DNA from: a plasmid
DNA: 49,804 nucleotides
Sequence record: NZ_KJ588780.1
Direction: 5' to 3' (one strand)
Below are positions 39,901 to 42,900 of the stretch, in pieces; position 1 is the first letter of the stretch; each line of letters opens with the position of its first letter. Made by a program: the position numbers.

Positions 39901-42900
39901 TGCTTCCCACTTCTTGACGATGAACGCTTGATGCTCCGGCAGTACCGCCGTCACTCGCTCGAAGCCCTCGGGGAGCTGTTCCCCTGCTGCTGCCCATACG
40001 CGACTGACCGCCTGCGACACCGCCCCCTTGGTCAGCCCCAGCGAAGTGACAAACTCCGCCTGGGGCCGGCCATCGACCAGCACGCCGCGCGCTATGTCGA
40101 TGGTCTGCTGCCCGATCTCCAGCCCCTTGATGGCCGTCTGGAATTGGGCTTCGGTTAGCCGTTTCTTCATGGATTGCACCCATAACACTCCACACCCGGT
40201 TTGTTGAACAAATGGCGGTGCCAGCCGCCAACCATGTGCAGAAGTTTAGCTAAACCATGCGAAGCCGTCAAGCGTTTTAGCGGCTAAAAATTTGTTCGCG
40301 CCTTGTCGATGGCCGATGCCGTTGCGGCCGTCGCCCGCGCCTGTCGCCAGTGGTCGGAATCCACCGCGCACGCGCAAAGCGTGGCCCCGTCCTGGTCGTA
40401 GAACACGGCCGGCCGGCCCTCCACCTTCGCCTCGATGCGCAGCGCCTTGGCAGGCAGGCCCAGCCCGTCCGCGATGACGGCCAGGGTGGCGCGCTGCAAG
40501 GCCAACTCTTCCCCCTTGGCGTCAATGAGCTGTGCCGCATGGGCGGCACTCAGGAAGAACGTCATCAGCGGGCCTACGGTGCGCGTGCCGCCGCTGGCAA
40601 AGCACACGTCGAAGGAACCGCCGCCCACGTGCGGATCGACGCCCTCCACGAGACGCCAGGGGTCAAGGCCCCATTCTTCGGATTGCGCGCTGTACCAGTA
40701 GGCCGGCGCGTCGCCGTTCAAGTCGCTGTCCGCGTACTCGCGCACCATGACGGCCACGCGGCCAGTGGTCGGCTCCACGAAGCCAGGCGGGTAGGGGAGG
40801 GTCTGCTTTGCCATGTCAAAGCCCTTTCGGTTTGTAGATCGAAACGAAGTAGGTGATCGCGGTCAGTGCCGCGAAGTACGCCAGGAACGACCAGCCGGCA
40901 TACACGCCAGGCGTGTTCCAGTGGTAGAGCATCCGCACGAACTGGAAGAAGGTGATGATCGCCAGCACCCACTTGAGCACCGGCCAGACCAGCACGGTCG
41001 CCACCCATACGAACTTGACCAGGCCGGCCACCAGGCCCCGGCCTTCGGCCTTGGGTGCGGCAGGCGCAGCAGCGGGCGCGGCAGGCTGCACCGGCTCGGG
41101 AGCCGGCGGCTTGCTCGCCCTGGGGAACTTGACGATGTTGGACATGGCTTGACCCTCCACGCGGTTACGTGTTGAATGCTGGATGCTCCCACTCGGAAGC
41201 ATGGTTACGGTGTGCCAGCACCAGGCCAAGCGCCCCGGATCACTCCGGGGCGTTCCTCCACCTGGGGCCGTCGAACGTGTGGAATGCCGTCATTGCAGCG
41301 TCGCTCCGCTCATGCGTCGCACGGCCGCCGCCAGCAGCATTTCCGTCAGCTCGTTATCTTCCTCCGGCGTGATGCAGCCGCCGCAGATGCTGCCGAACTT
41401 CTCGCGGGCATCATCGGCGCCGATGATGGTGTGGCTCAAGGTTCGGATGCTCTTGCCGCAGCGCCGGCAGCACGTCTCGATGATCTCGATCTTGCCTTTG
41501 CTCATGGGACTGTTTCCTCTTGGCGTTCCGTTGATGACCCGGCCGAAGCCGGGCCGCCTTCCCTTACCAGCCGACGCTGCGCTTGGCCTGCTCGACCGCT
41601 TGGCTCGACCATTCGCCCTTGGCACTGGCCTCCAGGCTCAAGGCGGCGAAATAGGCTTTGCCGCGCAGCTCTTCCGCCTGCTTCACCAGCTCGGCCGCCT
41701 CGGCCATCGTGGCCTCGATCTGGTCGCGGCGGGCTTGGAAGTCGGTGGCTTCCACATTCGGCAGGGCGTCAACCCAAGGCATGATCTTGTTCTTGCTCAT
41801 CGGAACCTCTCCGGTAATCGACCTGGGCGGAATGCCCGGCCTTCAAGTGCTATATTAGGACAAAATGTCCTAGCCTGTCAAGCACTTTAGCTAAACTATT
41901 TTCGCTTTACCGTAGTCCGATGCCTAGCACTTTAGCCGCTAAAGCCTCTTTCCCTGGCGTCAAACCTCTTTCCAGATCAGCCCGAGGCCGGCGTAGTCGC
42001 ACAGCAGCGCCCACGCGGCATAAGGGATCGGCGTGTCCTCGCCCACCCATCGCCGGATCGTCCGGTCGCCCTTCGGGCCGAGGCCCAGCACCTTCGCGGC
42101 TTTGCCGCCGGTGAGGCCCGCCAGGCGCAGCACCTCGCGCACCTCTTCGCCGCTCGGCTGCGCCCACCGCTCGGCCGGCTTCAAGCACTCCAGCCGGATA
42201 TTGGCGTCGTTCGTCATTCGTTTCTTCTCCTGGTCACGTGATAAGCCGCAGTTGGTCGAATCCGTAGATCGACTGAATGCAGCTCGGGTCTGAATCCACC
42301 ACACGGCGGCCCGCGCGGTTGGTCTTGTATGTCACCGGCCGGTCGTCATGCGCCCACACCTGGCGGGTGTCTGGATGCACCTTCACGATGATGACGCGCT
42401 TGCCGATCTCCTTGGCGAACACCGGATGGTGGACGCTCACGATCTCGCACCGTTGGCCTGGTGCGGGCGTGAACTCCACCAGGTCGGCCGGGCCTGCATC
42501 GCCATTCCTGGCGGTGCTGCAGGATGCTTCGCCTGCGCCCGGCATCGTCGCTTCTGGCGATACAGGCCCAGCCTCGGCCTTGCAATCGTCAGCTTTGGCG
42601 GTGCTGCAGCGCATCGCCGTTTCCGCCGATGCGGGATCTCGCTCGCGGCCCCCGGCCTTTCCCTTGGCGTTCGACCTGGCGGCCCTGGCCGCCTTGACCT
42701 TGCCCGCCGCCTCGGCCGCCCAGCGCCGCGCGATGAACGCCTTGTGCGCCGGCAGCACCACATCGACCAAGACGAAGCCCGGCGGGATCGTCACGGTCGC
42801 CGGCTCGCGCCGCGCCGGCGGCACCAGGCCGGCCAGCCAATCGGGCAGGGGAGCGTCGGCCAAGCGGTCGCGGTAGTTGGCCTCGATCAACACCGGCCGC

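Follow-up and report, generated by a model that had tools for sequence, protein, structure and literature searches.

This work concerns a group of short inverted repeats located inside the klcB gene of a plasmid (sequence record NZ_KJ588780.1), analyzed as a stretch of 49,804 nucleotides that is called the window throughout. The klcB coding sequence lies at 42234–43439 on the minus strand and is open over 401 residues, as a preliminary description of this DNA had stated; its translation contains the peptide ETAMRCSTAKADDCKAEAGPVSPEATMPGAGEASCSTARNGDAGPADLVEF quoted there. The gene takes its name from the KlcB annotation in near-identical IncP-1β plasmids (pB8, the Burkholderia ambifaria AMMD plasmid, and others), to which the neighborhood is 99.8–100% identical and in which the annotated gene order is korC–klcB–klcA. 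These sequence comparisons identify the window as an IncP-1β plasmid of the R751 type; a single base separates its klcB from that of R751 (NC_001735.4). The repeat groups of R751, including the copies in klcB, were described by Thorsted et al. in 1998, as related in the passage of Elg et al. (2024; PMC10871194) that cites that work. Because the window's klcB is essentially R751 klcB and its repeats had already been described, finding them is a rediscovery of a described feature: they are the same object as the clustered inverted repeats of R751, with the same unit consensus and clustering, and they differ in nothing. What the IncP-1β repeat groups are for has lacked an explanation since 1998, and Upf31, a plasmid protein that figures prominently below, has recently been shown to alter both the host range of these plasmids, which spread resistance, and their cost in fitness. 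The additions made here are the location of the repeats in a protein linker, the separation of DNA-level from protein-level constraint, natural variants in unit number, an extension of the family to IncP-1ι and to a further klcB lineage (P0036), the absence of covariation, and a promoter palindrome in distant Upf31 homologues.

The repeated unit is the 20-bp sequence CATCGYCR-N4-YGRCGATG, made of 8-bp arms around a 4-nt center, with invariant outer arms (CATCG...CGATG). The window contains 27 matches with up to two mismatches, where dinucleotide-preserving shuffles give 0.35, and 46 with up to three mismatches, where 4.8 are expected. Five clusters hold 22 of the 27: 15776–15885, 21219–21430, 35436–35611, 42497–42631, and 49553–49747. 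The fourth is the klcB array. Its first unit, CATCGCCAttccTGGCGGTG (42497–42516), has one mismatch and is identical to the unit at 15776–15795; the second, CATCGTCGcttcTGGCGATA (42543–42562), also has one mismatch; the third, AATCGTCAgcttTGGCGGTG (42584–42603), has two; and the fourth, CATCGCCGtttcCGCCGATG (42612–42631), has one and is followed by the 13-mer GGGATCTCGCTCG at 42633–42645. No strand is assigned to these units, which are spaced 46, 41, and 28 nt apart. The array thus shows the clustering of the family as a whole (three to five units, about 28–60 nt apart, at conserved backbone positions) and, by its units, its clustering, and its upf31-bearing backbone, is a member of the IncP-1β clustered inverted-repeat family, the inverted-repeat (IR) groups of R751.

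The closest paralogous module is the three-unit cluster in the upf30.5–upf31 intergenic region (15776–15885, plus strand). The klcB array aligns with it colinearly and has one extra unit, the third, which has no counterpart there; 28 nt are identical between 42496–42523 and 15775–15802. The claim that the klcB segment is a degenerate copy of the same module therefore holds, with four units at one or two mismatches each. The motifs named in support of that claim were slightly overstated. GCTGCAG, found in the klcB segment at 42516 and 42603, does accompany units in each of the four remaining clusters. The exact 13-mer GGGATCTCGCTCG is exclusive to klcB, and just its core, GGATCTC, is common to three other clusters.

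At the protein level, the repeats encode a linker. The stretch 42480–42656 (minus strand) corresponds to KlcB residues 262–320, and its assignment as a repeat-derived, predicted disordered linker draws on the AlphaFold2 predicted local distance difference test (pLDDT), on length variation among clades, and on the ratio of nonsynonymous to synonymous substitution rates (dN/dS). In an AlphaFold2 model built with 27 homologues, pLDDT falls below 50 at residues 1–16 and 262–320 only, and the latter is the repeat-coded stretch. The linker is flanked in the model by a long helix (residues 231–261) and by a C-terminal beta-rich domain (residues 322–401; 42237–42476, minus strand) with a pLDDT of about 90 and low dN/dS; the domains on both sides are modeled as folded with high confidence. 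N-terminal of the linker lies a KorA/TrbA-like domain (residues 214–249; 42693–42800, minus strand), which matches positions 83–118 of the NCBIfam TrbA model and whose DNA resembles trbA at 1984–2038; it is the known domain shared by KorA, TrbA, and KlcB. The protein belongs to the KlcB family: its homologues are marked in the database with PF27393 and PF27190, and its own KorA/TrbA-like segment lies between the N- and C-terminal domains. A search of the Protein Data Bank with Foldseek gave the C-terminal domain (42237–42476) weak KOW/SH3-like matches (uL24, NusG/Spt5; best E = 4e-3).

When KlcB was aligned across clades, using the α (R702), δ (pEST4011), and ε (pHH128) proteins together with those of pHP-42, a Xanthomonas hydrangeae plasmid, and pHNFP671, the N- and C-terminal domains were conserved and the stretch between them varied by clade in length and content. 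It is this interdomain stretch that the repeat-derived peptide occupies in β.

Because the klcB copy lies in a coding region, selection on the protein and selection on the DNA can be told apart, which makes it a clean natural experiment. Between β sub-lineages, dN/dS is 0.6–1.4 in the insert, compared with 0.12–0.32 in the N-terminal domain, 0.12–0.47 in the KorA-like domain, and 0.00–0.29 in the C-terminal domain, where it is at most 0.12 in six of seven pairs. In the comparisons of the window with pAKD26, Xtrans, and pALTS33, the synonymous rate (dS) is 0.22–0.26 in the insert versus 0.31–0.63 in either flank. Diversity in the insert, as mean pairwise values at codon positions 1, 2, and 3, is flat both in the stems (0.105, 0.133, and 0.103) and in the spacers (0.164, 0.223, and 0.179), whereas the N- and C-terminal domains show the usual third-position excess (0.165–0.195 at position 3 versus 0.025–0.073 at positions 1 and 2). 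A dN/dS close to 1 and the absence of codon periodicity mean that the linker is neutral as protein. Variable columns make up 27% of the stems and 43% of the spacers (p = 0.04), and the spacers are indistinguishable from flanking third positions (37%, p = 0.28). Within β, then, the linker peptide evolves like neutral sequence and the palindrome arms are only modestly protected. The deeper comparison is the stronger evidence for constraint on the DNA: in the klcB genes of IncP-1ι and of the P0036 lineage, the units keep the consensus with no or one mismatch despite a flanking dS of 0.5–1.2. The outcome of this natural experiment is selection on the motif in the DNA and none on the peptide.

These results bear directly on one of the two options offered in the preliminary description, that a DNA module was domesticated into the coding region, so that the insert would be a functional Cys/Ser/Thr-rich peptide under protein-level selection. 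The motif (D/G)PAS..TM.CS.A.NDD does recur in the β lineages and in P0036, and nearly every sequence retains the reading frame. Yet it is precisely the conserved palindrome and the CTGCAG bases that code for the recurring residues, Cys is not conserved in IncP-1ι or P0036, and a natural deletion removes 30 residues from an otherwise identical KlcB (P0007). A need for the C-terminal domain accounts for the retention of the frame. With the neutral dN/dS, the missing codon periodicity, and the predicted disorder of the region, nothing indicates selection on the peptide, and this alternative is very improbable. The refuting pattern named in the preliminary description, a protein kept while its palindromes are not, is the opposite of what is observed.

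The repeats are not confined to β plasmids. While the motif CATCG-N10-CGATG was not found in the approximately 2-kb klcB loci of six other clades (α, δ, ε, and three more), it is present in pYKBR041, a plasmid of the subgroup named IncP-1ι (PMC9499019), whose KlcB and Upf31 are 63% and 75% identical to those of the window. The klcB gene of this plasmid (L144:4282-5643) has three units with zero, one, and zero mismatches, and homologous cluster locations are also found in IncP-1ι. The P0036 lineage, which has an α-like N-terminal extension, carries two units in klcB, with zero and one mismatches. The proposal that the insert might be specific to β is therefore borne out against the six other clades and not against these two: repeats together with upf31 occur in IncP-1ι as well, and klcB repeats also in the P0036 lineage.

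The number of units varies. Database relatives close to the window's KlcB fall into forms of 401–404, 371–378, 370, and 358 residues, and the DNA of three short forms shows in-frame deletions of 90, 78, and 96 nt with end-points in the repeats and two units left. Some of the short forms come from metagenome assemblies, where repeats could collapse; a 376-residue form also comes from a 43-kb Xanthomonas euvesicatoria contig (P0014). The four β units amount to a two-unit block present twice, with the peptide pattern ..SPETTM..CSI.K/R.DD appearing twice, and P0036 has one such block. In the ι-type proteins (452–453 residues; P0016, P0024, and P0026), about 75 extra residues are inserted between the palindrome units of the linker, which makes the repeat region an insertion hotspot even within a gene. 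In pB12 (L009:401-1596), a 1-nt deletion in the repeat region breaks the frame and splits klcB. The klcB gene of pAKD31 (L008) has a short frame-shifted stretch farther upstream, with the frame restored later; the frame changes in both plasmids are either real or sequencing errors. Every natural klcB variant examined retains at least two units and, pB12 excepted, the reading frame. One database entry for R751 KlcB (P0011, 371 residues) reads the palindromes in another frame and at first seemed evidence that the frame is free. It was discarded as a superseded sequence, the current R751 record (L149:448-1653) encoding a 401-residue KlcB, and the old reading is probably due to errors made in early sequencing of the hairpins.

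This plasticity raises the alternative that the klcB copy is a functionless by-product of recombination or gene conversion among the clusters, harmless in a linker and subject to slippage that changes the unit number. Its attraction lies in the range of two to four units and the deletion end-points within repeats, in the 28 nt shared with the upf30.5–upf31 module, which suggest exchange between clusters, and in the ι insertion and the pB12 frameshift, which mark the region as prone to rearrangement; the klcB units of the window are also the most degenerate of the family. What makes it unlikely is that at least two units with no or one mismatch persist in every insert-bearing lineage at a flanking dS of 0.5–1.2, where neutral sequence would lose the consensus, and that stems vary less than the spacers adjacent to them.

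If the DNA is what is conserved, the question becomes what recognizes it, and a clue lies beside the paralogous module. The upf31 gene (15921–16595, plus strand) is full length and encodes a 224-residue, Dam-methylase-like protein. The third unit of the module (15866–15885) directly follows a TTGACA hexamer (15859–15864), giving TTGACAGCATCGCCATTTCTGACGATGCT, and is the operator-like repeat at the upf31 promoter. In a reporter assay on a 68-bp fragment of this promoter, Upf31 acts as its own repressor, and the most obvious operator there is the inverted sequence CAGCATCG, a member of the unit family (Elg et al. 2024; PMC10871194). In IncP-1ι, upf31 is preceded by an identical 20-mer in the same TTGACA arrangement. 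The arrangement is also found at Upf31 homologues that are 46–49% identical, where it ends 8 nt before the start codon: it reads TTGACATCATCGTCATTTCTGACGATGCT at the homologue on a Pseudomonas megaplasmid (L137:1447-1503) and TTGACATCATCGTCAAAACTGCCGATGCT at that on a Synechocystis plasmid (L140:1447-1503). A promoter motif conserved before such distant homologues adds weight to the published proposal that the repeats serve as Upf31 sites.

The distribution of units and genes points the same way. A scan of genome contigs, one genome per species, returned at least 120 loci. Among the matches listed, the sole locus with two adjacent units (46 nt apart) lies directly upstream of an upf31 homologue; 119 of the loci listed had neither a KlcB nor a Upf31 homologue by local tblastn and look like chance matches. 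A chromosomal family of the kind formed by repetitive extragenic palindromic (REP) sequences or miniature inverted-repeat transposable elements was rejected, the matches listed being chance-like and single apart from the upf31 locus. In a plasmid collection, Upf31 homologues (at least 60% identity) occur in 87 records and KlcB in 352. Escherichia accounts for 83 KlcB records yet does not rank in the top ten hosts for Upf31 hits, so that Upf31 is missing from most KlcB plasmids of Escherichia. Given the conservation of the promoter unit, the co-occurrence of repeats with upf31, and the published autorepression assay, Upf31 is the most likely candidate for a binder of the unit family.

Whether the units are read as sequence or as folded structure can be approached through covariation. 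In 49 distinct units taken from the window, three other β klcB genes, IncP-1ι, and P0036, compensatory covariation was not found: 85.9% of cells were paired versus 86.2% after partners were shuffled, with scores of 0.190 and 0.196. Since pairing is no higher than in the shuffles, it is explained wholly by the conserved palindromic sequence. In addition, the C·A mismatch of the promoter unit is the same in β and ι, and three of four promoter units have a TTTC center. The absence of covariation, together with the retention of these features, speaks for double-stranded recognition by a dimeric protein rather than for selection on a hairpin or cruciform. The second option of the preliminary description, that the DNA is selected and KlcB tolerates it, is thus upheld in substance by the dN/dS, the periodicity, the pLDDT, and the conservation of the units; the part of it that named structure as the selected feature is not, given the lack of covariation.

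The explanation that we consider probable for the whole is that klcB holds a member of the R751 inverted-repeat family whose units are Upf31 sites tolerated in a linker. Each 20-bp unit would most likely be a double-stranded site for a dimer of Upf31, an autorepressor with a Dam-methylase-like fold. A two-unit block would have entered the linker-coding stretch of klcB before the β, ι, and P0036 lineages separated, and its duplication in β would have produced the four units. A disordered linker should tolerate any in-frame sequence, so that only the frame and the DNA motif would be under selection: the frame since it keeps the C-terminal domain, the motif as the consensus of the units, and not the peptide. 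The units in klcB may then form an intragenic docking cluster for Upf31 inside the klcA–klcB–korC operon, and docking could modulate transcription of the operon or the interplay between Upf31 and KorB predicted by Elg et al.

Several observations weigh against this explanation or limit it. For one, the β stems are not significantly less variable than flanking synonymous sites (27% versus 37% of columns, p = 0.15) and do only modestly better than the spacers. The window's own klcB units, the most degenerate of the family, carry five mismatches in total versus one in the pAKD26 lineage, and this degeneracy means that constraint on them may be relaxed. The palindrome is missing upstream of two of the four distant Upf31 homologues examined, both about 45% identical; L139, one of the two, has another inverted repeat in its place, and none was detected in L138, the second. 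The published link between Upf31 and the unit consists of the 68-bp reporter assay and inference, and the units are putative Upf31 sites. Further, klcB is not repressed in the presence of Upf31 but ranks with the most up-regulated genes (Elg et al., PMC10871194). Finally, the half-sites are asymmetric. On the plus strand, the non-Watson–Crick stem positions of 22 units are G·T in 26 cases and A·C in 4, the corresponding counts for unrelated imperfect 8-bp hairpins of the window being 114 and 111. Such a bias is not expected from a symmetric dimer, and no model examined accounts for it.

The asymmetry is an argument for a different view, in which the selected feature is a single-strand hairpin, formed either in the DNA transferred during conjugation or in plus-strand RNA, and klcB tolerates it. 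The bias runs in the same direction on the equivalent strand of IncP-1ι (G·T 11 versus A·C 4; L144) and among distinct klcB orthologue units (31 versus 6), and RNA energy parameters make the plus-strand hairpin the more stable in 17 of 22 units (p = 0.006). The origin of transfer (oriT) nick motif, ACATCCTG|C, is on the plus strand at 33636–33647, with traK, traL, and traM downstream. The plus strand is therefore the transferred strand, by what is established for RP4 and R751. On the other side, the G·T and A·C counts are not independent events, since the units share ancestry; DNA energy parameters show no strand difference (12 versus 10 units, p = 0.19); and the whole klcB segment (171 nt) folds better on the minus strand (−50.4 versus −46.1 kcal/mol on the plus strand), through long-range pairing between neighboring units. 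The units are without T-runs, and no terminator-like site coincides with them. With compensatory changes missing, and with the conserved C·A mismatch and TTTC loop of the promoter units pointing to sequence reading, a selected hairpin is distinctly unlikely.

To return to Upf31 docking, what it might do at klcB can be narrowed. Up-regulation of klcB by Upf31 makes a simple roadblock or repressor role there unlikely. The C-terminal tail of Upf31 is predicted to contact KorB (Elg et al., PMC10871194), and in view of this prediction and of the up-regulation, a roadblock is less plausible than a docking cluster through which KorB-dependent repression at the klc operon would be disturbed. A bolder version, rather unlikely as a whole, holds that the klcB array is a working intragenic regulatory node, at which docking of Upf31 alters KorB-dependent silencing or read-through into korC, or that the units act on the transferred strand. 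If such a node exists, it would link Upf31 to the global control circuit of the plasmid and would help to account for the host-specific fitness cost reported for pBP136; if the units act on the transferred strand, the G·T/A·C asymmetry would reflect a single-strand role for them in conjugation.

No promoter- or terminator-like site coincides with the units in 42200–43000 or 15600–16100 by a consensus promoter scan that is insensitive here, having missed the experimentally shown upf31 promoter. An intrinsic terminator was rejected as an explanation of the units, with no GC-rich stem followed by a T-run coinciding with them. Proximity of the clusters to KorB operators was likewise set aside, the distances of 0.6–1.9 kb being the chance expectation for 12 sites in 50 kb.

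Among known systems, the operator-like repeat of the upf31 promoter belongs to the same 20-bp unit family as the klcB array, which aligns colinearly with the three-unit module bearing that repeat. Flanked by TTGACA and a −10-like hexamer, the promoter unit resembles an operator more than any other sequence in the 68-bp fragment repressed by Upf31. Unlike it, the klcB units have no promoter-like context, are more degenerate, and are putative sites only. The KorB operators (OB, TTTAGCSGCTAAA) offer a precedent on the same plasmid for regulator sites that are conserved as DNA within coding sequence. The window has 12 OB sites where none is expected, some of them inside open reading frames, e.g., at 23328 in traC. 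According to the R751 literature, OB sites stay conserved while their surroundings diverge. The differences are that OB is a single 13-bp site with a proven binder, whereas klcB has four 20-bp units with a candidate binder and these define the peptide of the whole linker. REP sequences and bacterial interspersed mosaic elements resemble the klcB units as short, imperfect, GC-rich clustered palindromes. Unlike them, the klcB units have no associated transposase and, among the matches listed, are confined to upf31-bearing plasmid backbones.

The three remaining clusters have five units each and no assigned strand: one lies just past the 3' end of traC (21219–21430), one between traM and kfrC (35436–35611), and one at the end of the window (49553–49747). 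The last probably falls in the oriV–trfA region, judging by the homologous trfA-adjacent cluster in pYKBR041 (L144). Between the upf31 module and the traC-side cluster, the stretch 16597–21200 contains a recombinase-family gene and other open reading frames that are not in related backbones, and JN106165-type plasmids are without about 3.6 kb of it. This content fits the old suggestion of insertion hotspots flanked by repeat regions. In IncP-1ι (L144:25672-26530), upf31 is just past traC and inverted relative to its position in β, with the identical promoter palindrome kept and three further units downstream, toward traC. The repeats appear to move with the gene.

In the Pseudomonas and Synechocystis plasmids mentioned above (L137 and L140), the Upf31-like gene, annotated as a DNA adenine methylase, is followed by a co-directional gene, for an 8-oxoguanine DNA glycosylase in the first and a hypothetical protein in the second. 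Beyond it are convergent genes that include one for 7-cyano-7-deazaguanine synthase, and together these genes may form a conserved cassette concerned with the modification or repair of DNA. Closer to klcB, a 113-nt direct repeat, 84% identical between its copies at 41807–41919 and 43925–44037, brackets the korC–klcB–klcA block. Each copy holds a KorB operator (41931 and 44015, at the repeat edges), and the two are probably duplicated, co-regulated promoter regions of kle and klc.

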